DNA of 64,000 bases from Alphaproteobacteria bacterium (GTDB taxonomy: Bacteria > Pseudomonadota > Alphaproteobacteria > UBA6615). A program made the position numbers and the translations under genes. The notes beneath the pieces are model-generated. The model did no database searches. It saw only the letters and a program-made list of their open reading frames with translations, and was not told the DNA's origin. The stretch is taken from contig JAJFIX010000031.1 of assembly GCA_021774575.1 (NCBI GenBank), forward strand, positions 28,264-92,263, in the 5' to 3' direction. Positions 49,001 to 63,892 of the stretch are shown in pieces. The first letter of the stretch is position 1, and each line of letters begins with the position of its first letter.

Positions 49001-52000
49001 TTAAAACGGCTGTACGATATCCGTCGGCTGATCTTTATTGGCCCGCCGTTGTTGAAAATTGGCCCGAATCATGAGGGCGCTCGGCGTCACGATAAGCGTC
49101 AGCACCGTGGCAAATGTTAGACCGGAAACAATAGCGGTCGACAATTGGACCCACCATTGGGTTGAAGGGGCTCCCTGACTAATTGTCCGACCGATGAAGT
49201 CGATATTAATCTGCAGGACCATCGGCATCAGGCCCAAAATGGTGGTGACAGTGGTCAACATGACCGGCCGTAGGCGCTGAGCGCCGGTCCGCAATATCGC
49301 CTCTTTTTGATCGCTAATGGTAAGTTTTAGCCGGTCAAATGTGTCGATCAAGACGATATTGTTATTGACGACAATTCCGGCAAGGGCGATCACGCCGACA
49401 CCACTCATCACAATGCCGAAGGGTTGGCCGATGACAAGTAGGCCCAGCATTACACCCACCGTCGACATGATGACTGCCGAAAGGATCAGCATCGCGCTAT
49501 AAAAGCTGTTGAACTGGGTGACCAAAATAACCGCCATAAGAAACAGCGCGACGAGAAAAGCCTTTTGCAGGAAGGCCTGTGCATTTGCCTGGTCCTCATT
49601 CTCACCCTTGAAGGTGATCGAGACGTCTTCGGTCTCCAAGCCGGCTGCTTCGACCCAGGCCTCTATCTCTTTAACCTTATCGTCGACCAGGACGCCCGGC
49701 GAGACATCGGCTTTCACCGTGATAACCGGTTTGCCGCCGACACGGGTTATTGTGCCGACCCGGGGCACCGGGATGCGCGTCACGAAATTGCTGATCGGAA
49801 CGAGACCCGATGCCGTTGCAACCCGTACCTGATCGATTTGAGTCAAATTTCGGTATTCCTCAGGAAACCGGGCCACAATATCAACCTCGTCATCGGCGCC
49901 ATCTGGCCGATACTCGGTGACTTCAAGTCCGTTGGTGACAAAACGAATAGCCTGTCCGACGATTGCCACATCGGCCCCAAATTTCGATGCTTGAGCGCGG
50001 TCAACATCGATCTGCCATTCAATTCCCGGCATCGGACGGCTGTCTTCCACGTCTCTGAGGTCTTCGAGAGTATCCATATAGGCCCGAAGCTCGGCGACGA
50101 CGGGAGGGATATTATCCAAGCTATCTGACGCCAACTCAATGACGATTGGCTTGCCTCCGCCGGGACCTTGCTGCTGTTTGCGGATCTCAATATGGATCCC
50201 TGGAATGTCATGGGTCCGGGCAAGGATATCTTCGATAATTTCATCGGCTGAGCGTCGGTATTGCCATTCGACAAATTCCATTGAAATATTACCGATCACG
50301 TCCTCGGCAATATCGGCCCCGCCACTGATATTTCCCGCGATGGTGTAGATCGACTGTATTTCACCGCCTTCATTTTGTAGTGCGAGAATTTCTTGCTCGA
50401 CGCGCATGACGATGGTCGCTTTTTCGTCAACCGACAGATTTCCCCTGGCGTGGATCTGAATTGCCGCCTGATCCGGTTCGATGTCGGGAAAAAATTCGAC
50501 ACCATTCCCGAGCATAAAATAGGCTGCCCAAGATCCGACAAGGGCCAGTCCGGCGCTGGCGAGAATTAGCGCAGGGCGCCGAAGTGCTAACTCAAGTATG
50601 CGAACATACACACCTGTGCCGCCGCCCAACGTGGCCGGGTCAAACTCGCCGTCACCAGCAAGAGCTTGCGCCTGCTCGGAAATTTCCGAGCCGCCGCCCG
50701 AAAGTGACTTTTCTGCACGGCGGCCGAGCGGCAGCCCTAGTTTGGCAGCAAAAAAGGCGCCAATCCCCGCAATAAGAATAATTGGCAATATCGTGAGTGG
50801 TCCGGTTGTTAAGCCCAACACTTTGTGTAAAAGCGTCGAGGCAATTCCTGCTGAGATCGCGGCTCCGCCAATAACCACGGCCAGGGAAATAACCAATCTT
50901 GCCAATGCCGCCAGATTGGCCCCGACCACCGGGACAAATAACAAGGCCATGGCCAATGAAGCCACGAGAACCGCGATGAGGGTAAGGGGCAAGAATTTCA
51001 TAAACTCGCCGATCAAGTCAGGCCAAAACAACAATGGCAGGAATGCCGCCAAGGTCGTCGCGGTCGACGCGATAATTGGCCAGGCCATACGCTTTGCGGC
51101 AAGGGTGTAGGCGGTCGACGGGGGATTGCCCTCACTCAGCTTTCTGTCCGCATATTCATTCACCACGATGGCGCCGTCGACCAACATGCCGACAGATAAA
51201 ATCAAGGCAAACAGAACAACTACATTAACCGTGAGGCCGAGCAAGGATAGGACGAGAATTGCCGTCAAAAACGACCCAGGGATGGCCAGCGCTACGAGGA
51301 GACCGCCACGCACGCCAAGGGCGGCAACAATGACGATTAGGATCAGCAATATCGCGCTCAAAATATTGTTTTGCAGATCCGAAAGCATGATCCGGATATC
51401 GTCCGACTGATCTTGGCTGAAGGTGACATCGACCCCGGATGGCCATTCGGCGCTTTCTGCCTCGACGAGGGTTCGTACGGATTCGGTCGCATCGATGATA
51501 TTCGCCCCCGTGCGCTTGATGATATCGAGAGAAACAGCCGCATGTCCATTTATGCGCGCATAATTTTGCCGTTCTTCAAATCCCAATCTAATTGTCGCCA
51601 AATCCCCGACGGTTATAACGGCGTCGCCGCGGGTAGCGATTGGCTGACTATATAGGTCTTGGGAATCCTCATATAGCCCCGGCACCTTTACCGGAAAACT
51701 GCCGTTTGCCGCGGTCATATTGCCGGCGGCCACAAGCCGGTTCGAACGTGAAATCCCTTGAATGAGTGCATTCGTGTCGAGTTCGTAAACCTCGAGCAGG
51801 CTCGGGTCGATAATCAGCTCGAGCTGCTCTTCACGATTTCCCCCGATATTGACCTGAAGGATTTCATCGGGAAAAGTGCTTTCAATTTCCTCCTGCAGAT
51901 CGTCGGCGAGACGCTGCAATGTGCGTTGGGGGACATCGCCAGAAAGAGTAACGACAAGCACCGGAAATAGGGAAAGGTTGACCTCTTGTACTGTCGGTTC

Positions 52001-52372
52001 GTTGGCGTCTTCGGGCAATTCATCGCGGGCTAGTTCGACAGCCTCCAAAACATCTGTGCGGGCCTTGTCTGCATTGAACCCGGCAGTGAATTCCAACGTG
52101 ACATTGGCGCCACCTTGATAAGCGGTCGAGGTTATCTCTTTAACGCCCTCGATACCGGTGAGTTCGGCTTCAATGGGGCGCGCCAATAATCGTTCGGCAT
52201 CTTCGGGAGAAATACCCTGATGGCCGAGAGAAACATAAATTATCGGAATGCTGATATCGGGGTTTGCTTCTTTGGGAATGCTTAAAAAAGCAGACGTTCC
52301 AGCAATTAACAACATCACAAGTAACGCTATAAAAGTCCTCGCCCGGTTTTGGGCGGCGTCAATGAGGCTCAT
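49001..52372 (-). CDS. RND-family multidrug efflux transporter permease subunit (AcrB-like)
   Basis: 1123 aa with twelve-TM RND architecture and two large periplasmic domains. Operonic with the adaptor subunit. Confidence 0.9.
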   Translation of the reverse strand: MSLIDAAQNRARTFIALLVMLLIAGTSAFLSIPKEANPDISIPIIYVSLGHQGISPEDAERLLARPIEAELTGIEGVKEITSTAYQGGANVTLEFTAGFNADKARTDVLEAVELARDELPEDANEPTVQEVNLSLFPVLVVTLSGDVPQRTLQRLADDLQEEIESTFPDEILQVNIGGNREEQLELIIDPSLLEVYELDTNALIQGISRSNRLVAAGNMTAANGSFPVKVPGLYEDSQDLYSQPIATRGDAVITVGDLATIRLGFEERQNYARINGHAAVSLDIIKRTGANIIDATESVRTLVEAESAEWPSGVDVTFSQDQSDDIRIMLSDLQNNILSAILLILIVIVAALGVRGGLLVALAIPGSFLTAILVLSLLGLTVNVVVLFALILSVGMLVDGAIVVNEYADRKLSEGNPPSTAYTLAAKRMAWPIIASTATTLAAFLPLLFWPDLIGEFMKFLPLTLIAVLVASLAMALLFVPVVGANLAALARLVISLAVVIGGAAISAGIASTLLHKVLGLTTGPLTILPIILIAGIGAFFAAKLGLPLGRRAEKSLSGGGSEISEQAQALAGDGEFDPATLGGGTGVYVRILELALRRPALILASAGLALVGSWAAYFMLGNGVEFFPDIEPDQAAIQIHARGNLSVDEKATIVMRVEQEILALQNEGGEIQSIYTIAGNISGGADIAEDVIGNISMEFVEWQYRRSADEIIEDILARTHDIPGIHIEIRKQQQGPGGGKPIVIELASDSLDNIPPVVAELRAYMDTLEDLRDVEDSRPMPGIEWQIDVDRAQASKFGADVAIVGQAIRFVTNGLEVTEYRPDGADDEVDIVARFPEEYRNLTQIDQVRVATASGLVPISNFVTRIPVPRVGTITRVGGKPVITVKADVSPGVLVDDKVKEIEAWVEAAGLETEDVSITFKGENEDQANAQAFLQKAFLVALFLMAVILVTQFNSFYSAMLILSAVIMSTVGVMLGLLVIGQPFGIVMSGVGVIALAGIVVNNNIVLIDTFDRLKLTISDQKEAILRTGAQRLRPVMLTTVTTILGLMPMVLQINIDFIGRTISQGAPSTQWWVQLSTAIVSGLTFATVLTLIVTPSALMIRANFQQRRANKDQPTDIVQPF

Positions 52373-53574
52373 GGTTGCGGCTCCTCATCGAGCTCAGCAA
52401 TGCTCTCGTCTTGAGCAATCAATGGCACCGTTTCCCCAGAGGTGACATCGGCCGCTGCGAGGTCTACGGCAACGACCTGCTCTCCGACGACAACGAATTC
52501 CTGGCCACCAACAATAACCTGTGCCGTTTCGGGCAGGCCGTCGACCCACATACCTTCAATCGTTTCCTCAAGAATTCGAATTTCGTGAAATTCCACCAGG
52601 GCATCATTGTTAACCGTCTTGACCCCGATCTTTCCCAATTCAGATAGGGATAGCGCCGAAGGTGGTATCAGGTGCGCGACACTTTGGCCCGCATCAACAA
52701 GAATACGGGCGGTCAAACCGGCGCGAATTGCATAATTGGGATTAGCCACCTCGACCTCGAAACGATAGGTGCGAGTGGTCGTGTCTGCTTGGGCTGCAAT
52801 ATAAGTGACGGTACCGGTTATAATGGTGCCGTCGGAAAGTTCCGCTCCGCCGAGCCCGTTGAGTGATAAACGCGAAACTTCTTCTTCAGTCGCGTTGCCG
52901 ACGATCAGGATAGGGTCGAGGTCAAGCAATGTGCCGACGGGGTTTCCCGACTTGACGTAATCACCGACTTCCAAATGTCCGCTATGGATCATGCCCGAGT
53001 AGGGCGCACGAATATTGGTCCGCTCGATATCAGTCGAGCGTTGTTCGACGATGGCCCGCGCCGCATCGAGTTGGGCCTGGGCCCCGGCATGTTGAGTGGT
53101 TGAACGAAAACCTTCTTCGACCAAGCTCGCCGAGGCGCTGTATTCAATTTGTCGTTGCCTGAGCAACGCTTGAGCTTCGGAAAGTTTGGCCTCTCGATCA
53201 TAGAGCGCTATTTTGGCAATGACATCGCCTTCGGTGACTTCTTCACCCCGATAAGTGTTGAGTTCTAGTATTCGCCCCTCGGTTTCGGCCCGAATTTCCA
53301 CAGTACGGTAGGGCTCGGTACGCCCATTAACTACAATCTTGCTTGTTCGCTGAGCAGCTTGTGAATTTATCACCCGAACAGCAAACAAGTCTGCGGAGGC
53401 TTGCTCTGTCGTCGGTGCTTGATCGTCCGGCGATGTCGGGACATCCGCCGAACCGACAAAACCCGATCCGACCCATAAGATTGCGCCGACAGCGAGGGCG
53501 ACTGAGACCAAAACGGCCGGCTTACGGCGTAGGAATTCAGTTAGCCGAAATTTGGTTTTTGATTGCTCGGACAT
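52369..53574 (-). CDS. RND efflux periplasmic adaptor subunit (membrane fusion protein)
   Basis: 401 aa with an N-terminal anchor, coiled coil, and lipoyl/beta-barrel domains. It overlaps the RND permease start by 4 nt. Confidence 0.85.
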   Translation of the reverse strand: MSEQSKTKFRLTEFLRRKPAVLVSVALAVGAILWVGSGFVGSADVPTSPDDQAPTTEQASADLFAVRVINSQAAQRTSKIVVNGRTEPYRTVEIRAETEGRILELNTYRGEEVTEGDVIAKIALYDREAKLSEAQALLRQRQIEYSASASLVEEGFRSTTQHAGAQAQLDAARAIVEQRSTDIERTNIRAPYSGMIHSGHLEVGDYVKSGNPVGTLLDLDPILIVGNATEEEVSRLSLNGLGGAELSDGTIITGTVTYIAAQADTTTRTYRFEVEVANPNYAIRAGLTARILVDAGQSVAHLIPPSALSLSELGKIGVKTVNNDALVEFHEIRILEETIEGMWVDGLPETAQVIVGGQEFVVVGEQVVAVDLAAADVTSGETVPLIAQDESIAELDEEPQP

Positions 53575-53586
53575 TTAAATCACCTC

Positions 53587-54147
53587 CTAATCGGCTGCGG
53601 CGGCAGAAACCGCATGATCCAATTTGCGGTCTGCGGCAACGAGCTTGTCACCGTTTTCCAAAATATAGGCGCGCATCGCGCGATAAATTGCGAGACCAAA
53701 GCCTGAGACGAATGCCTCCCTTGGCCCCATTTCCTCAGTGCCATGGTCGCAATTTTCAAGTCGGTCTATATTTGCCCCTAAATCGGCAACCCGTCTGTCG
53801 ATCATGGTTTGTGTCGACGTCGGTCCCAACAACTGGGAATATAGGGCTTTAAACAAAAAATCGCAGGTGACCTTATCGCCTGGTGTCTCTTTAGCGAATG
53901 CGTCTAACAATGCGCCCCGGCCTTTACTGGTAATTGCATAAACCTTTTTTCCCGGCCGACCTGCTTGCGGGAAATTGGTAACAGACACCAACTCGTCTTC
54001 CAATGCCCGGGTTAGCGCGGGATAAATCGACCCAAAGCTAACATCCTGAAAATATGAGAAAGGCCCTTCCTCGAACGCGCCCTTGATTTCATACCCGGTT
54101 GCGTCGCCTTGACTGAGGACGGCTAAGCATATGATTTTAGTATCCAT
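53587..54147 (-). CDS. PadR-family transcriptional regulator
   Basis: 186 aa (…AVLSQGDATGYEI…, …SFGSIYPALTRLE…-like winged helix). It lies upstream of the RND pair. Confidence 0.85.
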   Translation of the reverse strand: MDTKIICLAVLSQGDATGYEIKGAFEEGPFSYFQDVSFGSIYPALTRALEDELVSVTNFPQAGRPGKKVYAITSKGRGALLDAFAKETPGDKVTCDFLFKALYSQLLGPTSTQTMIDRRVADLGANIDRLENCDHGTEEMGPREAFVSGFGLAIYRAMRAYILENGDKLVAADRKLDHAVSAAAAD

Positions 54148-54473: not shown

Positions 54474-55535
54474 ATGAAAATTTACTCTGCTGTTGCCGCG
54501 GGTACGCTCGCTGCGGCTATGGCCCTGGTCAGCGCGCCAGCGTATGCTCAGGGGCAAAGCCTGATTGCCTCGACCAGCCATCCGCTGGGATTGCCCTGGG
54601 TCGGAACTATCCAAGACTTTTTCATTCCTGAGGTGAACAGCCGGCTGGAAGCCGCTGGCCTTGATCCGATCAGCTGGAATGCCCAATTCCCCTTGCCGGG
54701 TTTGCCACCGACCGGCGTTCTCGAGACTTTGGAAGATGGAACGAATCATTTGTCCTGGGTGGGCACGCTATTTGAACCGCAAAAGATGGGACTTTTGAAC
54801 GTTGCATTTAATGCGCCTTTCGTCACCGACAATACTCTCGATCAACTCGAGGTGTTTAATAGCCTCTATGACCAGTTCCCCGAAATGGGCGCGGTTTGGG
54901 AAGCCAATGGCGCTGTGTTTCTTGGAGCGCAGGCGACGGCATCTTATGAATTGATCACCAATTTTCCGGTCAATTCGATGAACGATTTGGACGGACGCAA
55001 CATCATGTCACCGGGGCCGCAGGCCCAATGGTTGCGTGGCACCGGCGCGGTAATCGCCGACGGTAGTTTGCCCGAGGCCTTCAACTTGCTGCAGACCGGT
55101 GTTGTCGACGGTGTCATTCTGCCTGTGACCAATGCCTTTGCCTTCAAGTTATTTGAAGTTGGGGAGTTTTTGACGCTGATTAATATTGGTGCGCAAACCA
55201 CCGGTGGCTTGGCCATGGGCAAAGAGACATTCGATAGCCTGACACCTGCGGCGCAGGATATTATGCGCGAGGTCGGTCGGGAATGGTCTGGCGTCCATGG
55301 GGCAGTTGTAACCCAGCGTCAGCAAGGAGCACTGGCAAATTGGGAGGCCAACGGCGGTACCGTTACGCGGATTGGCACCGGCGCAAAGGCGGCATGGCTG
55401 AATGCATTGCCGGCTCTTGGGACCGAGTGGGTTGGCCGGAATGCTGCAGCCGGACCGTCTGCGGCAATTTTGAACGCTTATCTCGATGGCATGGCCGCTA
55501 AGGGCCATGAGCCGTTGCGCGATTGGCGCCAATAG
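54474..55535 (+). CDS. TRAP-type transporter periplasmic solute-binding protein (family assignment uncertain)
   Basis: 353 aa with a signal peptide (…AAMALVSAPAYAQ). It sits directly upstream of a fused DctQM permease. It does not carry an obvious canonical DctP or TAXI signature that I can recognise by eye. Confidence 0.6.
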   Translation: MKIYSAVAAGTLAAAMALVSAPAYAQGQSLIASTSHPLGLPWVGTIQDFFIPEVNSRLEAAGLDPISWNAQFPLPGLPPTGVLETLEDGTNHLSWVGTLFEPQKMGLLNVAFNAPFVTDNTLDQLEVFNSLYDQFPEMGAVWEANGAVFLGAQATASYELITNFPVNSMNDLDGRNIMSPGPQAQWLRGTGAVIADGSLPEAFNLLQTGVVDGVILPVTNAFAFKLFEVGEFLTLINIGAQTTGGLAMGKETFDSLTPAAQDIMREVGREWSGVHGAVVTQRQQGALANWEANGGTVTRIGTGAKAAWLNALPALGTEWVGRNAAAGPSAAILNAYLDGMAAKGHEPLRDWRQ

Positions 55536-55665
55536 AGCGACGTCATATTGCCACCTTGCCCTTGAGGCTAGGTGGCAACGAATTGCGGCCGATTGGTCGT
55601 GGGATGGGAGGCGCGGTGCGTCTCCCATTGAATTTATAAGAATATCTTTTGGTAGGTCTCTCGAA

Positions 55666-57804
55666 ATGAGCACAACTCAGGCAGCAACCGATACGCCGCG
55701 CATAGCTGACGATCTCGGTTTAATGCGAGTTTTGCGTAAAATACTTTCAGGCCCGATCACCGTTTCCAATGCCATCGGAACCGTTTGGATCTTTGCCTTA
55801 ATGCTGATGATCGTTGCAGACATTTTGGGCCGGAAGTTTTTCGGCACTCCTGTCCGCGGTGTTGTATTGATCGTTTCTCATTCGATTGTCGGCATTATAT
55901 TTCTTCAAATGGCGTCGAGTCTTGAAGTCGGTCGTATTACCCGGACCAGTGTTTTCATTGGCGGCCTGTTGAAAACCAGGCCTTTTGCCGCGGCTTTTTA
56001 TCAGCTTGTTTTTCACGGTCTTGGCGCCGTGGTGCTTGCCGAAATCGCCTACTGGACCTGGCCGAAGTTAGAAAAAGCTTGGAATACGGGTGAATGGGAA
56101 GGAGCGGCTAATGATGTCGTACTTCTCGTTTGGCCGCTTAAGGCCATCATTGTATTCGGTGCCTCGGCAACGGCACTACAATTTCTCCGCTTGGCTATTC
56201 GCGACGTTGCCGTACTTGTTACCGGCGTGCCCCAAGACCCGAGCGCCCCCAAAGACGCGCCCAAGGGATGGATGGCAATAACATTTTTGATCTTCGGGAT
56301 CCTACTTGTTTCACTGTTGGCGATGAATTCCGACGGACTAACCAATTTGCAAATCGGTATGATTTCCGTTGGTGCGATGTTGATGCTGATTTATTCAGGC
56401 ATGCATATTGCGATCGCTTTATTGTTACTCTCAATTGGCGGCAGTGCGGTCATCTTTGACGGCGCCGTGGTCCTTGCAATGAAGCAGATGGCCGGTGTCA
56501 CTAATACGGCTGTCGGTAATTTCACCTTCGGCGTTGTCCCGCTATTTGTTCTCACAGGCTTACTCGTCAGCGCGGCTGATTTCGGGCGCGAGGCGTTTGA
56601 AGTTGCGGAATGGATATTTGGTAAAATCGTTGGCGGGTTGGGGGTCGCGACCGTTGCGGCCAATGCCGTGTTTGCTGCGATTACCGGCGTTTCATTGGCT
56701 TCGGCGGCGGTCTTTACCCGTGTCGCGGTTCCGCCAATGGTCGAGCGTGGGTTTACGACTAAATTTGCCGTTGGTACGGTTGCCGGCAGTTCGGTACTCG
56801 GCATGTTGATCCCACCAAGTTTACTGCTCATCATTTATGGAATTGTCACCGAAGCGTCGGTTGGCAAATTGTTTCTCGCGGCCATTATTCCCGGCATCGT
56901 ATTGGCTACGGCTTTTGCCGTGATGATCATTCTGCTCGCCAAATTCATGCCAAACTTTGTTGGGGTCGAGGCACCCGAGCATAAACGCAAGCGGCTGGAA
57001 GCCGAAAAAGACGGCAATTTGGATCCGATGAGCAAAGCTGGTGTGGCGTTACTAGCCGGATGGCCGTTGCGTTTGACCGTTGGGCCGTCCGGTGCGGTAA
57101 AATTGCTCGGCGCACTCGTCAAGCTCACCCCAATTTTATTGCTGATGCTAATCGTCCTTGGCGGTATCTATGGCGGGTATTTCTCACCGACCGAGGCTGG
57201 GGCAGCCGGTGCATTCGCCGCTTTGGTCATCGCCCTCATAAAGCGACGGCTGACCTGGAAATCGTTTTGGGAAGTGATGTTGCAGACCGGGCATATCGCC
57301 ACCGGTGTTCTGTTCTTGATTACTGCATCGATGTTTTACGCACAATTTCTAGCGCGCAGCGGTTTGCCTGGTTTTATCATGGGCTTTGTGACGAATTCTG
57401 ATTTCGGGCTGGTCGGCCTCATCCTAGCGTACATGGTCGTGTTGTTGATCTTGGGAATGATTCTCGATCCCATTTCGATCGTACTCATCACCGTTCCGAT
57501 GATCTATCCGGCAATTGTTCAGGGCGGTGGCGATCTGATTTGGTTTGGCATCGTGACCATCATTGCCGTCGAAGCCGGTCTGCTGACGCCACCTCTCGGG
57601 CTGACCGTCTTTGTTGTTCAGGGGATAATGGGCGACGAACATGTCACTGTGCCCGAAGTCTTCCGAGGCGCCTTTCCCTACGTCATAACGATGATTCTGG
57701 TGCTCTTATTGCTGATCAGTCAGGAATGCATAAGCTTGGTCATGCTCGAGCGCGAAGGGGCGGCATGCCGCGAAGTCTTTGCCGGTTGGTTTGGGCGCGG
57801 TTAA
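55666..57804 (+). CDS. TRAP transporter fused small/large permease (DctQ-DctM fusion)
   Basis: N-terminal DctQ-like 4-TM region followed by a DctM-like 12-TM region (…GGLGVATVAANAVFAAITGVSLASAAVFTRVAVPPMVERG…). Start set at MSTTQ (55666). Confidence 0.8.
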   Translation: MSTTQAATDTPRIADDLGLMRVLRKILSGPITVSNAIGTVWIFALMLMIVADILGRKFFGTPVRGVVLIVSHSIVGIIFLQMASSLEVGRITRTSVFIGGLLKTRPFAAAFYQLVFHGLGAVVLAEIAYWTWPKLEKAWNTGEWEGAANDVVLLVWPLKAIIVFGASATALQFLRLAIRDVAVLVTGVPQDPSAPKDAPKGWMAITFLIFGILLVSLLAMNSDGLTNLQIGMISVGAMLMLIYSGMHIAIALLLLSIGGSAVIFDGAVVLAMKQMAGVTNTAVGNFTFGVVPLFVLTGLLVSAADFGREAFEVAEWIFGKIVGGLGVATVAANAVFAAITGVSLASAAVFTRVAVPPMVERGFTTKFAVGTVAGSSVLGMLIPPSLLLIIYGIVTEASVGKLFLAAIIPGIVLATAFAVMIILLAKFMPNFVGVEAPEHKRKRLEAEKDGNLDPMSKAGVALLAGWPLRLTVGPSGAVKLLGALVKLTPILLLMLIVLGGIYGGYFSPTEAGAAGAFAALVIALIKRRLTWKSFWEVMLQTGHIATGVLFLITASMFYAQFLARSGLPGFIMGFVTNSDFGLVGLILAYMVVLLILGMILDPISIVLITVPMIYPAIVQGGGDLIWFGIVTIIAVEAGLLTPPLGLTVFVVQGIMGDEHVTVPEVFRGAFPYVITMILVLLLLISQECISLVMLEREGAACREVFAGWFGRG

Positions 57805-57825
57805 TCAAGTTAGAGGAATAGATTT

Positions 57826-58638
57826 ATGGGTATGCTCGACGGCAAGAAAATTGTCGTTACCGGCGGGGCCAGCGGTATTGGTCGCGCCACATGTGTTCTT
57901 GCCGCGACGGAAGGCGCAGATGTTGCCGTTGCCGACATAGATCTGGAACGTGCCGCTGAAACCGCCGAACTCGTTCGGGCCGCCGGCGGAACGGCGATCA
58001 CGATTGAAATCGATACGTCGAAGAAAGCTGATGCGGATCGTATGGTGGCGGAGACCCTTGCTGCATTTGGAACCATTGACGGGATCGTGTGCGGAGCGAT
58101 CAAATTGGTTCCAGGCAAATTAGAGGAATTGCCCGAAGAAGATTGGGACATGGTGATTGATATTGGGCTTAAAGGTTATTTTCTCTGTGCCCAAGCGGCC
58201 GGCCGAGTGATGTTGGACAAAGGCGCCGGGTCAATCGTCTTCTTATCTTCGGTCGGTGGCGTGCAGGCCTATAATGGGGCAGGGGCCTATTCCATAGCAA
58301 AAGCCGGTGCGATCATGTTGGGCAAGCTATTCGGTGTTGAATGGGGGGGCAGGGGCGTGCGCGCCAATACAGTTTGCCCCGGCCAAATTCGAACCCCGAT
58401 GACCGAGGCAATGTTTGCCGATCCTGAAATCGCCGCAGGCAGAGCCGCCGTCGTTCCGATGGGGCGGGTCGGTTTGCCCGAGGAAATTGCCGAGGCATGC
58501 GTGTTTCTGCTTTCGGACCGGGCGAGCTACGTCAATGCCGACAGCATGCAGGTCGATGGCGGCCAGGCGGAAAGCAAAATGATGCACACGCCAGGACGCA
58601 ATTGGGGCGGCAAAAAAATGGATTATTCGACGAATTGA
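57826..58638 (+). CDS. SDR-family oxidoreductase
   Basis: TGGASGIG cofactor motif and a YxxxK catalytic motif (YSIAKAG). Confidence 0.9.
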   Translation: MGMLDGKKIVVTGGASGIGRATCVLAATEGADVAVADIDLERAAETAELVRAAGGTAITIEIDTSKKADADRMVAETLAAFGTIDGIVCGAIKLVPGKLEELPEEDWDMVIDIGLKGYFLCAQAAGRVMLDKGAGSIVFLSSVGGVQAYNGAGAYSIAKAGAIMLGKLFGVEWGGRGVRANTVCPGQIRTPMTEAMFADPEIAAGRAAVVPMGRVGLPEEIAEACVFLLSDRASYVNADSMQVDGGQAESKMMHTPGRNWGGKKMDYSTN

Positions 58639-58651
58639 AGAGGGCAACCTG

Positions 58652-59431
58652 ATGGGACGGTTTGAAGGTAAAGTCTGCATTGTGACCGGTGGTGCGAGCG
58701 GCATCGGGGCAAAGACGGCGGAAATGTTTGTCGAGCAAGGCGGGTGTGTCGTCGTTACTGACGTTAACGATGCGGCGGGCGAGAAATTAGTTGGCGATAT
58801 TGGGGCAAGCAAAGCGGCTTATTTACACCTCGATGTTACCGACCCGGACGCCTGCCAGGCAGGTGTCGACTTGGCTGTCGAGAAATTTGGCAGCGTCGAT
58901 TACCTGCTCAATTCGGCAGTGAAAATGGCACCGGGAATGCTTAAGGATCTTTCCTTGGCCGACTGGAACACGATGGTCAACATCGGTTTGACCGGCTCTT
59001 TTTTGATGACACAGGCCGTCGGAAATTGGTTGATAGAGAACGAACGACCGGGGTCAGTTGTGATGATGTCTTCGATTGGTGGGCGCCAGCCTTATGGCAT
59101 GTCGGGTGCCTATTCGACGGTCAAGGCGGCGGTAAAAATGCTGGCAGATCATTTCGGCATCGAGTGGGGCGGGTATAATATCCGGGTCAATTCAATCGTC
59201 GCCGGTCATATCGAGACACCGCTGACGGCTTACTTGAAGGACCCAGAAATCAAGCGCGGTCGCAGCGAAGTAACGCCCCTCGGCCGGGTCGGTCAGCCGG
59301 TCGATATTGCCAATGCGGTTTTGTTTCTTTTTTCCGACGAAGCCGATTATGTGACGGCAACAGCGCTCAATGTTGATGGGGGCATAACGCGCAGCGTCAT
59401 GAACCACATGCCCGGCCGCAAGTGGAGCTAG
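58652..59431 (+). CDS. SDR-family oxidoreductase
   Basis: TGGASGIG motif and a YSTVKAA catalytic motif. Confidence 0.9.
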   Translation: MGRFEGKVCIVTGGASGIGAKTAEMFVEQGGCVVVTDVNDAAGEKLVGDIGASKAAYLHLDVTDPDACQAGVDLAVEKFGSVDYLLNSAVKMAPGMLKDLSLADWNTMVNIGLTGSFLMTQAVGNWLIENERPGSVVMMSSIGGRQPYGMSGAYSTVKAAVKMLADHFGIEWGGYNIRVNSIVAGHIETPLTAYLKDPEIKRGRSEVTPLGRVGQPVDIANAVLFLFSDEADYVTATALNVDGGITRSVMNHMPGRKWS

Positions 59432-60255
59432 CAGCAGTGAGTTCGCGCCAACCAGCCGGATACAGCTGAACTAACCGCAGCCTCTTGGCCGACATAGAAG
59501 TGACCGCAATTTTCGATAATCTCAACATCGCAGGGACCCGAACATTTTTCCGCAAATTCATCGGCTGGGTAAATATCGTCGGACTCCTCGTCGCCTTTAA
59601 GAAAAAGCACAGGGCAGGAAATTTTTTCCGCCCAGTCCAAAATTCCGGGCACCGAAGTCATGAAATCGACCGCACTTTGTGCGCCAATGACCCGCCACCA
59701 CCCGTCCAACAGTAATAAATCGCGTGGGCGTCCGGCGGCTATACTGGTCACCGCGCGCGCAGCAATTTTGTCATAGTCTGCACCGGCCCAATTTCCGGCG
59801 GCGCTGATCTTTGCAGCGATATCAGTTCCGCCCGCATGGGCCGAAAGCAAAATCAGGGCCGGTGTGTCGGAATGGTCTGCTGTGTAGCGCACCCCCAGCA
59901 TTCCGCCATTGCTGTGGCCGATGACGATTGGCGAACCAAATCCTTTGGCGCGCAGCCATTCCCCGGCCGTTATATTATCCGCCATAGCTTCGGCTGCTGT
60001 TTGGTAGGCGCCGCCTTCCAATTCACGGCTATCGCGGGTCGATAGGACATCGTGCCCACGTCGATTAAAGGCGAGGCAAGCAAAACCCATCTGGGTCAAA
60101 ATAGGTGGCAGGAAACGCGGCGCACCAACATAAAAATTCATGCAATTGCCATGCATCAGCATGACGGTGCCGCGAATTTCACCATCATCGGGTTCATAAT
60201 AGGCGCCGTCCAGCGGAACCGTGTCGGTTCCAATGGAGACCAATTCGGTCCGCAT
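59428..60255 (-). CDS. Alpha/beta-fold hydrolase
   Basis: 275 aa with a GHSNGG nucleophile elbow. It is 17 nt downstream of the nitrile-hydratase alpha-like gene on the same strand. Confidence 0.7.
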   Translation of the reverse strand: MRTELVSIGTDTVPLDGAYYEPDDGEIRGTVMLMHGNCMNFYVGAPRFLPPILTQMGFACLAFNRRGHDVLSTRDSRELEGGAYQTAAEAMADNITAGEWLRAKGFGSPIVIGHSNGGMLGVRYTADHSDTPALILLSAHAGGTDIAAKISAAGNWAGADYDKIAARAVTSIAAGRPRDLLLLDGWWRVIGAQSAVDFMTSVPGILDWAEKISCPVLFLKGDEESDDIYPADEFAEKCSGPCDVEIIENCGHFYVGQEAAVSSAVSGWLARTHCC

Positions 60256-60272
60256 GTTTATTGGTCTGCTTC

Positions 60273-60908
60273 TTATTCTAAGACAGTGGGCAATGTCACG
60301 CCAACCATGGCATCGCGGGTAATAATCTCTTCCAACTGTGCTTCGCTCCAGCCTTGCGTCCCCTCGGGGCGCATTGGAATGACGACGTAGCGCATATCGG
60401 CATTGCTATCATGTACCCGCAGCGTCACGTCATCAGAAAGTTGGGTGCCGAATTCCGCCAGCACGGGGCGCGGTTCGACAACGACGCGCTTGCGATAGTT
60501 ATCGGATTTGTACCAAGTCGGTGGTTGCCCGAGGAGGTGCCGGGGATAGCAGGAGCATAGAGTACAAACGATCACGTTATGAATTTCGGGAGTGTTTTCG
60601 ACGGCGACGAGCTGGTCGGTTTCCAGGTCAATCCCCATGGAGGCAACTGCCGCCTTGCCGTCGCGCAGCAGGAATTTTTTAAATGCGGGGTCGGTCCAGG
60701 CCCGTGCAATTACTTTCGCGCCGCGATTTGGATAATCGGACTCAAAGGCCTCCATGGTCGCCCTGACCTCATCCGCCGTCATCACCCCTTGGTCGATCAG
60801 CAGTTCCTGCATTGCCCGGCTCATGATTTCGTATTCGCTCGGCACACCGTCTCTCTGGCCGGCAGTTTGATGAGGATGTTGGTGATCGTCGACGTGATTA
60901 TTTACCAT
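60273..60908 (-). CDS. Nitrile hydratase alpha-subunit-like protein, cobalt-type metal centre (or thiocyanate hydrolase gamma-like)
   Basis: 211 aa carrying VCTLCSCYP, the Cys-Thr-Leu-Cys-Ser-Cys claw of Co-type NHase alpha. The flanking sequence (…WYKSDNYRKRVV…, …RYVVIPMRPEGT…) matches the NHase alpha fold. Confidence 0.85.
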   Translation of the reverse strand: MVNNHVDDHQHPHQTAGQRDGVPSEYEIMSRAMQELLIDQGVMTADEVRATMEAFESDYPNRGAKVIARAWTDPAFKKFLLRDGKAAVASMGIDLETDQLVAVENTPEIHNVIVCTLCSCYPRHLLGQPPTWYKSDNYRKRVVVEPRPVLAEFGTQLSDDVTLRVHDSNADMRYVVIPMRPEGTQGWSEAQLEEIITRDAMVGVTLPTVLE

Positions 60909-61254
60909 TGGATTTTTCGCTCCCTTCGGCCCGCTCTTCAGCTTGATTGAGCCAATGCTCGTAGATTTCCAACTCTATCGTGTCGTATTGCGGACCGGCG
61001 TAAGTTGGCCAGACATGAGTTTGCGAGAATCGAACTCGGTAGAGAATGCGTTCGGGCAGTCCGTCTTCACCATAGGCCCTGGTTTCCGGGTCTGGAAAGG
61101 CGCCACAAATGCGCTCGATCTCCCCGCTTTTGCCTCGAATATAATAGGGCACCCGACAGTGACCCGCCGGATAACCGATTTGCACGGTTACACTATCACC
61201 GACGTCGAATTTTCGGTTGGGGGCTGGGCGGTAGGTTGAGGTCGCACCGGTCAT
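60898..61254 (-). CDS. Nitrile hydratase beta-subunit C-terminal-half homologue (SCNase-alpha / ToyL-like small subunit)
   Basis: 118 aa (…FDVGDSVTVQ…GHCRVPYYIRGKSGEIERICGAF…ILYRVRF…) resembling the C-terminal beta-barrel domain of NHase beta. Confidence 0.75.
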   Translation of the reverse strand: MTGATSTYRPAPNRKFDVGDSVTVQIGYPAGHCRVPYYIRGKSGEIERICGAFPDPETRAYGEDGLPERILYRVRFSQTHVWPTYAGPQYDTIELEIYEHWLNQAEERAEGSEKSNGK

Positions 61255-61632
61255 CTAGCTTGCTCTATTTTTCGATTGGCCCGTCGCAAACCTGGCCCTG
61301 ACAACTTCCATCTTTTCATCCAGTTCGGCCTGGGTGAAAGTCCCTTTTTCGATAAGGAGATTGCGGATCGCCTTTGTTGTTCGTTCAAAATAGCTGAGCC
61401 GGTAATAATCGGGTAAATCCTCGGCCGCCCGCCGCATCTCATCAAGTGCAGAGATCCCCTTGGCGACCATCACCATACGCATACCATTTGCCTGTTTTTC
61501 CCAAAACAGCATGCCGTGATCTCTGGTGTCGATGGGGCCAGCATCGGCACTACTCACATCGCCCCCCATATCATGGGCACGGGGGGCGTGGGGGCCATCT
61601 TCGGCAGTGGGACCGTGCTTAGGGGTTTTCAT
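61255..61632 (-). CDS. Nitrile hydratase beta-subunit N-terminal-half homologue (SCNase-beta / ToyK-like small subunit)
   Basis: 125 aa (…HDMGGDV…GPIDTRDHGMLFWEKQANGM…DYYRLSYFERTTKAIRNLLIEKG…) resembling the N-terminal helical domain of NHase beta. Confidence 0.75.
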   Translation of the reverse strand: MKTPKHGPTAEDGPHAPRAHDMGGDVSSADAGPIDTRDHGMLFWEKQANGMRMVMVAKGISALDEMRRAAEDLPDYYRLSYFERTTKAIRNLLIEKGTFTQAELDEKMEVVRARFATGQSKNRAS

Positions 61633-61732
61633 GATTTATCGTCCTCGTGTGCGTGCAACATGACCGGTTCCCACGATAGCGAATTTATTCGCCCTTGTAG
61701 AAATTGAATTATGTAGAATATGTATTTTGGCA

Positions 61733-61762
61733 TAAAAAACCCCCCGGCGTTATCGCCGGGGG
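61733..61762 (-). terminator. Rho-independent terminator after the Gfo/Idh/MocA gene, insulating it from the NHase-like operon
   Basis: Minus-strand hairpin CCCCCGGCG-ATAA-CGCCGGGGG followed by TTTTTTAT. Confidence 0.8.
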
Positions 61763-61793
61763 TCAAATCAAGCTAACCGCCTGTATGTCAGGG

Positions 61794-62798
61794 TTAGCCG
61801 GTAATGTCGCTTATAGCGACCGGCTGCCCACTGGCGACAGAATTAATCATCGCCTGCAATGCCTCGATGGAGTGCAGGGCATCGGCAGGGCTGATATGGT
61901 AGGCGCCTTTGCCGGCAATTGCATTGGCAAAAGAGCGTTGCTCTTCGGCGATGCTGGCAATCGGGTCTGAGACAAAATCAAAGTCATAGGTCAATGTCTC
62001 GGGCTCACCATCAACCGGCCTGAAGGTCAAATTGTTATAGGCTCGACCAGTGATTTCTGCCGAAGCCTTGGTTCCGAAAATTGTAATGTTCATGCCAATC
62101 GCCGTCGCAACTATGGTCGCGATTGACCCGGTTGCACCGCTTTGGAGTTTGAACATTGCTGACGAGGTGTCATCGACATCGGCTTCAACCGCTATCCGAT
62201 CCGACAATGCGTAAACCGTATCAAAACGGCCGAATAAATCGATAACATGATCGATTTGATGCATGCCGAGCGGAGCCATGCCGGCAATTGGCAATTCGGT
62301 CCGCGACATCCTCCAATTCTCGGCCGGCATTTTCAGGGCCATTGGGATGGTTTCGGTTGCTGAAAAATGCAATAATTTGCCGAAATATCCTTCGGCAATC
62401 CGATTTCTTATTTCGACAATAGATGGATGGTTTCGACGATTGTGGCCGACAGCGAGAACCAAGCCTTTTTCAGCCGCAAAGTCTGTGACTTTCTTGGCGC
62501 CTGCGTAGGTCAAGGTAAGGGGTTTTTCGACGAGCACATGTTTTCCGGCTTTAAGTGCCTTTGCAATATCTTCATCATGTTGTGTGTTCGCGGTTGAGAC
62601 AAAAATCGCCTCAATATCGGCGTTTTCTAGCATATCATCGATGCTGGTGAAAACCTTGATACCGTATTTCTCTGCCGTTTCTTTCGCTTTTTCGGCGTCA
62701 CGTACGGTGGTCGCGGTGAATTGGACATCGGAGTCGGCACCTGCGCGCACGCGGTTTTGAGCCCACCAGCCGAGGCCTGTGATACCTGCTTTAATCAA
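61794..62798 (-). CDS. Gfo/Idh/MocA-family oxidoreductase
   Basis: 334 aa with an N-terminal Rossmann fold (MIKAGITGLGWWAQNRV…). Confidence 0.85.
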   Translation of the reverse strand: MIKAGITGLGWWAQNRVRAGADSDVQFTATTVRDAEKAKETAEKYGIKVFTSIDDMLENADIEAIFVSTANTQHDEDIAKALKAGKHVLVEKPLTLTYAGAKKVTDFAAEKGLVLAVGHNRRNHPSIVEIRNRIAEGYFGKLLHFSATETIPMALKMPAENWRMSRTELPIAGMAPLGMHQIDHVIDLFGRFDTVYALSDRIAVEADVDDTSSAMFKLQSGATGSIATIVATAIGMNITIFGTKASAEITGRAYNNLTFRPVDGEPETLTYDFDFVSDPIASIAEEQRSFANAIAGKGAYHISPADALHSIEALQAMINSVASGQPVAISDITG

Positions 62799-62914
62799 AA
62801 TCTTATCCTTCCGGGTGGAAATTAGGGGCCGCAGCCGACCTGGCCCAATTGGGCCAGGGTTTCATATCGAAAAGGGGGGCGCGCCGCAAGGCCGAGGACA
62901 CGGGGCAAGCCCGG

Positions 62915-63892
62915 TTACGGAACCAGAATGATCGATCCGGTGGTTTTTCGTCCGGCAAGGTCGATATGCGCCTGTGCGGCGTCTTCCAGCGCGTATTTAC
63001 GGCTGATATCAACGCTGAGAGTCTCGTTTCCGATGAGATCAAAGACCTCCCGTGCCATGGCGGCGGCCTTTGCCTTTGTATCGATAAAATGTTTCAACGA
63101 TGTCTTACCGAAAAACAGAGATTTTTTGTTTAGCGCCATGGCGTCGATTGGCGGTAGCAAACCCGACGCATGTCCAAAATTGATAAAAAATCCGGTCGGT
63201 GCGAGTGCGGCAATATTGCCGCCAAACGTATCCTTGCCGATGCTGTCATAGACAACGTTGACGCCCTTTCCGTCAGTAATTTTTTCGACCGTTGGCGCGA
63301 ATGGTTTGGTTGAATAGTCGATGACATGATCACAGCCAGCGGCGCGCGCGGCCGATATCTTGGCAGGGCCCCCAACCGTGCCAATGACCGTCGCGCCGAG
63401 ATGTTTCGACCATTGGCATAGCAGCGACCCCATACCCCCGGCGGCCGCATGAACCAGGACTGTATCGCCTTCGTTTACACGATAAGTCTGGCGCAATAGA
63501 TATTGGGCGGTAAGCCCGCGCAGCAGGGCCGCCGCGGCAACTTCTTCGCTGATGCCGTCGGGTAATTTAACCAGTCGATCTGCGGCGATCAGACGCTCGC
63601 TGGTATAGGCGCCCATGGAGAAGAGATAGGCCACTCGGTCGCCAACAGCTACGTTTTCGACGCCGTCACCAATCTGAGCAACGATGCCGGCGCCATCCAA
63701 CCCGATCGCCGACGGCAGGTCCGGTTTGAGAAAATAGGTGCCTTGGCGGGTCAAAATATCGGCAAAATGTACCGCCGCGGCTGTTTGCGTGATCCGAACC
63801 TCACCGGACCCCGGATCGCCAATATCGACTTCACTAACGTGCAGGTTTTCCGGACCGCCAAAGGCGTCAATTACAACCGACCGTGCCATCAT
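62915..63892 (-). CDS. NADPH:quinone oxidoreductase / zinc-independent MDR-family alcohol dehydrogenase
   Basis: 325 aa (…AAAVHFADILTRQGTY…, …AAGGMGSLLCQW…). Confidence 0.85.
   Translation of the reverse strand: MMARSVVIDAFGGPENLHVSEVDIGDPGSGEVRITQTAAAVHFADILTRQGTYFLKPDLPSAIGLDGAGIVAQIGDGVENVAVGDRVAYLFSMGAYTSERLIAADRLVKLPDGISEEVAAAALLRGLTAQYLLRQTYRVNEGDTVLVHAAAGGMGSLLCQWSKHLGATVIGTVGGPAKISAARAAGCDHVIDYSTKPFAPTVEKITDGKGVNVVYDSIGKDTFGGNIAALAPTGFFINFGHASGLLPPIDAMALNKKSLFFGKTSLKHFIDTKAKAAAMAREVFDLIGNETLSVDISRKYALEDAAQAHIDLAGRKTTGSIILVP

Follow-up and report, generated by a model that had tools for sequence, protein, structure and literature searches.

The locus analysed here raises the question of why the two halves of a predicted nitrile hydratase (NHase) beta subunit lie in two open reading frames that meet at a TAG directly followed by an ATG and share one reading frame, and whether such a junction marks a broken gene, a site of stop-codon readthrough or the boundary between two genes. 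In the 64,000-nucleotide stretch of DNA under study (the window), the minus strand reads ...AAA AAT AGA GCA AGC TAG ATG ACC GGT GCG ACC... across the junction. The upstream gene, betaN (61632..61255, TAG included, minus strand; 125 aa, 14.0 kDa), ends with the TAG at 61257..61255, and the first codon after it is the ATG (61254..61252) that opens betaC (61254..60898, minus strand; 118 aa, 13.4 kDa). The spacing between the two genes is 0 nt, hence the single shared frame of 125 + 1 + 118 = 244 codons. The preliminary description had reported this abutment, the common frame and the 244 codons, and both the sequence and the list of open reading frames bear out its account, coordinates included. 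We conclude that the TAG-ATG junction is very probably the natural boundary of two genes in a three-gene operon (betaN, betaC, alpha) for a cobalt-type NHase-like enzyme.

Each of the two products corresponds to one domain of an NHase beta subunit. BetaN matches Pfam NHase_beta_N (E 9e-16) and betaC matches NHase_beta_C (E 3e-20); on the NCBIfam beta-subunit model TIGR03888 (226 positions), betaN spans positions 4-101 and betaC 130-226. Because each represents half of the model, both score far below its whole-protein cut-off of 152.2 bits (49 bits for betaN and 67 for betaC), and beta is not encoded here, as in canonical NHases, as one polypeptide of ~205-235 aa that passes TIGR03888. In the structure of the 206-aa beta subunit 4fm4_B, residues 5-95 are matched by betaN residues 20-108 and residues 114-203 by betaC residues 11-103, the latter also aligning to 3qyg_B 117-217. 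These alignments place the junction in the ~18-residue linker between the two beta domains. We propose that beta is made as two polypeptides, cut between a helical N-domain and a C-terminal domain that the NCBIfam description calls SH3-like.

Within the betaN family alignment R67/R68, Y76 and Y81 are invariant, while betaC carries GHCRVPYYIRG at residues 31-41, of which GHCR...YIRG aligns with GHTR...YTRG of 3qyg_B. In canonical NHase beta, two arginines and a tyrosine contact the oxidised cysteine ligands. On the basis of published NHase structures, we take R67/R68 and Y76/Y81 of betaN together with GHCR of betaC to be the active-site arginine and tyrosine positions. The betaC N-terminus bears a conserved S-[ST]-Y-x-P-A-P motif that is kept by no start other than the ATG at 61254. 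This ATG is the sole usable start of betaC, since an in-frame TAG adjoins it upstream and the next start downstream would lose the motif.

The third gene of the operon, alpha (60908..60273, minus strand; 211 aa, 23.7 kDa; Pfam NHase_alpha, E 4e-79), begins before betaC ends, the two overlapping by 11 nt (ATGGTAAATAA). Its product passes the NHase alpha equivalog TIGR01323 with 259.2 bits (cut-off 249.85) and, at 224 bits, falls short of the thiocyanate hydrolase gamma model TIGR03887 (cut-off 291.45). The metal-binding motif CTLCSC occupies alpha residues 115-120 (60549..60566, minus strand) in the context VCTLCSCY (residues 114-121), the cobalt-type form of the NHase metal-binding motif. Alpha has both marks expected of a cobalt-type NHase alpha subunit, the C-(T/S)-L-C-S-C motif and a pass on the curated alpha model. 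Alpha residues 1-20 (60908..60850, minus strand) form a His/Asp-rich N-terminal extension, MVNNHVDDHQHPHQ, which takes the form HDHDHGDHDHDDH in many relatives; at least three histidines occur in the 40 residues ahead of the alpha alignment start at 46 of 78 loci.

One explanation for the shared frame is that a once-intact 244-aa beta gene was recently interrupted by a nonsense mutation, or appears interrupted through a sequencing or assembly error. The frame itself and the joint length of the two ORFs, which is that of a normal beta subunit, would fit such a history, and the junction lies close to an A5 run, where indel errors can arise. The homologues of betaN argue otherwise. A betaN search of a 90%-clustered set returned 127 homologues, and the 120 that were listed all consist of the N-domain (PF21006) only; their median length is 119 aa, and 116 of 120 do not exceed 160 aa. 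An exhaustive HMMER scan with betaN over 1.84 billion cluster representatives (50% clustering) gave 515 representatives at E up to 1e-3, canonical beta subunits included; among the best 150 of these 515 matches, 121 were no longer than 160 aa.

The genomic arrangement of the relatives was examined in a one-genome-per-species scan that yielded 77 loci, mostly from metagenome-assembled genomes of Burkholderiales/Betaproteobacteria with a few from Rhodospirillales. At each locus betaN, betaC and alpha were located by tblastn and then extended to stops and starts. In each of 72 non-redundant related loci, N-half and C-half occupy ORFs of their own and never share a frame (0/72 in frame), frame relations being taken from tblastn coordinates and so independent of start choice. 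The commonest junction is a four-base NTGA overlap (49/72, two of them after a betaN-alpha fusion ORF), followed by overlaps of 8-17 nt of the ATG...TAG type (19/72, with the starts of these relatives inferred), a one-base overlap of the form TAATG or TGATG (2/72) and a short gap of 7 or 19 nt (2/72). No intact beta was found in the relatives, as the 120 listed N-domain homologues and the 72 split, out-of-frame junctions attest. The in-frame state is not conserved and is unique to the window sequence among the 72 related junctions.

Other domain arrangements occur among the longer betaN matches, which include betaN-alpha fusions, betaN-betaN tandems, a betaN-betaC-alpha triple fusion and canonical beta subunits. 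P0135 (206 aa), P0143 (212 aa), P0224 (528 aa) and P0162 (348 aa) all depart from the simple betaN layout; the betaN-betaC-alpha fusion is full-length in P0224, while the alpha domain of P0162 is matched only in part. In two Rhodospirillales loci, L055 (3950-4933 and 4930-5271) and L057, betaN and alpha share a 327-aa ORF that is followed by betaC with an ATGA overlap. L028 (3905-4933), L026 and L075, and the proteins P0170, P0129 and P0194, are betaN-alpha fusions too; such fusion ORFs measure ~320-340 aa, and a His/Asp linker of the DHDHDGKP type joins the betaN part to the alpha part. At L028 the separately encoded betaC is not adjacent to the fusion. At L058 (4283-5292) a betaC-like match lies ~1 kb downstream of the betaN stop, and at L061 the extended betaN frame continues across the betaC match.

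Fusions of betaN to alpha with a separate betaC indicate that the two beta halves are independent modules, and since alpha can sit between them, the family cannot consist of recently broken beta genes. On the sequence comparisons above, the split of beta was already present in the ancestor of a large family whose members come mostly from metagenome-assembled genomes of Burkholderiales and Rhodospirillales.

How the shared frame came about could be traced in the closest relatives, which are metagenome contigs with 79% (L079-L081), 72% (L082) and 60% (L083/L084) identity to betaN. All have the ATGA overlap, and they have the GFO/MocA and alpha/beta-hydrolase neighbours in common with the window; they also use the same ATG as the betaC start. 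The preliminary description had proposed a nucleotide comparison with orthologous loci, and an alignment of the junction DNA of the window with its three closest relatives was informative: ATGA is kept in all four, the window reading TAG ATGA CC, and the variable C-terminal tail of betaN (61258..61290, minus strand) contains exactly one extra base in the window, seen as a single-column gap in the three relatives. As a result of this base betaN stops at a TAG three bases before the ancestral TGA, and the frames of betaN and betaC coincide. If this base is left out, the betaN frame runs ...AGA TGA and closes in the usual ATGA overlap. We therefore propose an ancestral junction with an ATGA overlap, in which one base gained in the dispensable betaN tail would have shifted the betaN frame, so that it now ends at a TAG just before the same ATG. 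The tail is unconserved in the protein alignment of the family, and the shared frame, to which the preliminary description had attached meaning, is best read as an accidental by-product of a +1 indel that altered only the last few residues of this tail.

The same comparison bears on sequencing error. Two ORFs result with or without the extra base, so an indel error in the A5 run close by would leave the conclusion that beta is split unchanged; one base fewer in the tail restores the ATGA overlap and yields no fusion. In addition, a Logan contig (SRR15505518_235980, L078, 3944 bp) agrees with the window at every position of its length, TAGATG included. This contig possibly derives from the same reads and is accordingly counted as a second assembly, not as independent re-sequencing. 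Taken together, these observations make a broken or misread beta gene extremely improbable. A pseudogene created by nonsense mutation was rejected, since beta is split in the closest relatives (79, 72 and 60% identity) and equally in 70-odd loci at greater distance.

Another explanation is programmed or otherwise functional readthrough of the UAG, which would give a fused full-length beta beside the two halves. Since the ATG follows the TAG directly and in the same frame, the product would be a beta of canonical length joined through its natural linker. However, the in-frame layout occurs in 0/72 relatives, and a layout unique to the window cannot have been maintained by selection. The fold of the 120-nt junction RNA does not stand out from those of its shuffles (z = +1.17), TAG serves as a normal stop for 10 of the 45 long open frames of the window, and no tRNA gene of any kind lies within its 64 kb. 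We consider functional readthrough highly improbable, and rejected the programmed form in view of the unconserved frame, the insignificant fold, the lack of a tRNA gene in the window and the ordinary use of TAG. The preliminary description had left three options side by side: the conserved split and the domain assignments speak strongly for its first, a genuine split in the inter-domain linker with coupled translation, whereas nonsense mutation or sequencing error founders on the 120 listed homologues, the 72 split junctions and the identical second assembly, and programmed readthrough on a unique layout, an RNA fold at z = +1.17 and an ordinary stop codon.

Basal misreading of UAG would still be expected to give traces of a 244-aa beta through the natural linker, with no sign of selection for it. 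After the one-base insertion, one substitution that turns the TAG into a sense codon would be enough for the window lineage to rejoin a beta subunit that was split long ago. It is conceivable, but very unlikely when both parts are taken jointly, that basal or suppressor-mediated UAG misreading already supplies a little functional full-length beta and that the family represents an activator-independent three-subunit NHase. If true, low-level full-length beta beside the halves would be a natural intermediate of gene re-fusion.

Returning to beta as two separate gene products, the next question is how betaC is translated. For each start, we calculated how strongly the preceding 22 nt pair with the 16S anti-Shine-Dalgarno (anti-SD) sequence. 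BetaN is preceded by an SD-like GAGGA (61642..61646, minus strand; anti-SD duplex -5.9 kcal/mol) and alpha by an SD-like GGGAG inside betaC (60920..60924, minus strand; -7.6 kcal/mol). The betaC start has no Shine-Dalgarno sequence, its pairing of -2.1 kcal/mol being set against a mean of -2.56 (SD 2.25) at random window positions; the RBS for the second ORF inside the 3' end of the first, which had been suggested as worth looking for, did not rise above background. Zero spacing between stop and start, together with a betaC that lacks an SD of its own, is the geometry of termination-reinitiation, and on these two features betaC is likely translated by such coupling. Ribosomes ending betaN at the UAG would re-initiate at the adjacent AUG of betaC, and this coupling would tend to give betaN and betaC in equal amounts.

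Alternatively, the split could be genuine and betaC could initiate independently, from a weak or non-canonical RBS or from an A-rich, unstructured region. The sequence upstream of the ATG is indeed A-rich and unstructured, and an SD of -5 kcal/mol or stronger lies within the betaN tail of 57% of relatives, so that betaC probably initiates independently elsewhere in the family. At the present junction, in contrast, anti-SD pairing is at background, and directly adjacent stop and start codons are the classic geometry of re-initiation. Independent initiation of betaC therefore appears unlikely, though it deserves considerably more weight than either of the explanations discarded above.

A strong intrinsic-terminator-like hairpin (61741..61762, minus strand), with 9 G-C pairs followed by GTTTTTT, lies between betaN and the upstream GFO/MocA oxidoreductase gene (62798..61794). 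Its position 3' of the GFO/MocA gene marks betaN as first in its transcription unit; a sigma-70 promoter scan upstream of betaN gave no convincing match. At the other end, an alpha/beta-hydrolase gene (60255..59428, minus strand; Pfam Abhydrolase_1 and Abhydrolase_6) starts 17 nt downstream of alpha and probably shares its operon. An alpha/beta hydrolase also follows alpha in L082-L084 and is found nearby in L055/L057.

Further out lie a zinc-ADH gene upstream of the NHase operon (63892..62915), two SDR genes convergent with the alpha/beta-hydrolase gene (57826-58638 and 58652-59431), and genes for a TRAP transporter DctP (54474-55535) and a fused DctQM (55486-57804). Most genes of the neighbourhood from 54474 to 63892 recur in L082-L084, and part of them in L055/L057. 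This gene content suggests that the cluster serves the catabolism of an imported substrate bearing a nitrile. On the very unlikely reading of an activator-independent enzyme, the His/Asp-rich alpha, the betaN-alpha fusions and the hydrolase/oxidoreductase/TRAP neighbourhood, considered together, would hint at an imported nitrile as well. Upstream of the TRAP/NHase cluster, the minus strand encodes an RND efflux pump (AcrB-like, 1123 aa), an HlyD-family membrane-fusion protein and a PadR regulator (49001-54147), a region with no evident link to the betaN/betaC junction.

Cobalt-type NHases are characterised by an adjacent gene for an activator or self-subunit-swapping chaperone, and none lies within the 64-kb window. 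No beta-like paralogue or activator was detected in the window by tblastn, the neighbours being the hydrolase, GFO/MocA, ADH, SDR and TRAP transporter genes. An activator gene could be located elsewhere in the genome. The His/Asp-rich N-terminus of alpha may serve as a built-in metal-acquisition tail, there being no activator gene in the window. For the same reason, maturation and activity of the predicted NHase-like enzyme count as putative.

For annotation, these findings mean that the two short ORFs should be neither merged nor called a pseudogene or a recoding site, and that they are to be labelled as subunits betaN and betaC of a three-subunit NHase-like enzyme. Predicted split-beta NHases extend beyond thiocyanate hydrolase (SCNase) and toyocamycin nitrile hydratase (TNHase) and form a large, mostly unnamed family in which the domain arrangement varies (betaN/betaC/alpha, betaN-alpha plus betaC, and betaN-betaN). 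Domain shuffling, a His/Asp-rich alpha N-terminus, no activator in the window and a conserved neighbourhood give this family an interest of its own. Enzymologists might look to it for new nitrile-hydrating activities and for NHases that mature without a separate activator.

Our literature search found no account of this betaN/betaC/alpha family; the work it brought up concerned only SCNase, TNHase and fusion NHases that were engineered or eukaryotic. SCNase (scnB-scnA-scnC; PDB 2DD4) resembles the present system in having three subunits and in carrying the equivalent of NHase beta as two polypeptides. The betaN family profile matches residues 43-145 of the 157-residue SCNase beta chain 2dd4_B (E 4e-10), and betaC matches residues 32-126 of the 126-residue SCNase alpha chain 2dd4_A (E 1.3e-8), which indicates that the cut falls in the same inter-domain linker in SCNase and here. 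The preliminary description had placed the junction exactly where SCNase is split; the PDB alignments uphold the common linker and not the finer exactness. These alignments also give the half-to-half correspondence with the SCNase chains. The SCNase gene order scnBAC runs N-half, C-half and catalytic subunit, the same as betaN, betaC and alpha, and SCNase assembles as a complex of its three subunits. Unlike in SCNase, alpha lies below the TIGR03887 gamma cut-off and passes the NHase alpha model TIGR01323, and a single-sequence search with betaN matches canonical NHase beta, not SCNase beta. The neighbourhood, with its GFO/MocA, ADH, hydrolase, SDR and TRAP genes, is not typical of sulfur or thiocyanate metabolism.

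TNHase (ToyJKL) from Streptomyces rimosus is an NHase with three subunits in place of two (PMC12648386). Its chains of 21.2, 10 and 11.4 kDa assemble into an (alpha-beta-gamma)2 hexamer (PMC8574189). Here, too, one large subunit is accompanied by two small ones (23.7, 14.0 and 13.4 kDa), a likeness in composition, and the halves here are larger than the small subunits of TNHase. No toyocamycin/sangivamycin (deazapurine) biosynthetic genes were found near the locus in the window. By analogy with TNHase and SCNase, the three proteins would be expected to form an (alpha-betaN-betaC)n complex with enzyme activity.

With canonical cobalt-type NHases (alpha2beta2; PDB 3QXE, 1IRE and 4FM4), the present system shares an alpha equivalog, VCTLCSCY and both beta domains, and the arginine- and tyrosine-containing motifs of canonical beta align with those of the halves. 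It differs in encoding beta as two genes, in having no activator or accessory gene in the window, and in the His/Asp-rich N-terminal extension of alpha.

Finally, the junction can be compared with coupled operon genes in general. Those joined by ATGA, TAATG or TAGATG have in common an adjacent stop and start, a downstream gene without SD and products that are subunits of one complex. Compared with ATGA coupling, the zero-spacer, in-frame TAGATG is a rarer geometry that does not differ in kind and that is here derived from ATGA. In kind the junction holds no surprise: it joins two operon genes in an ordinary way, and the enzyme concerned is an uncharacterised one of the split-beta three-subunit NHase superfamily.
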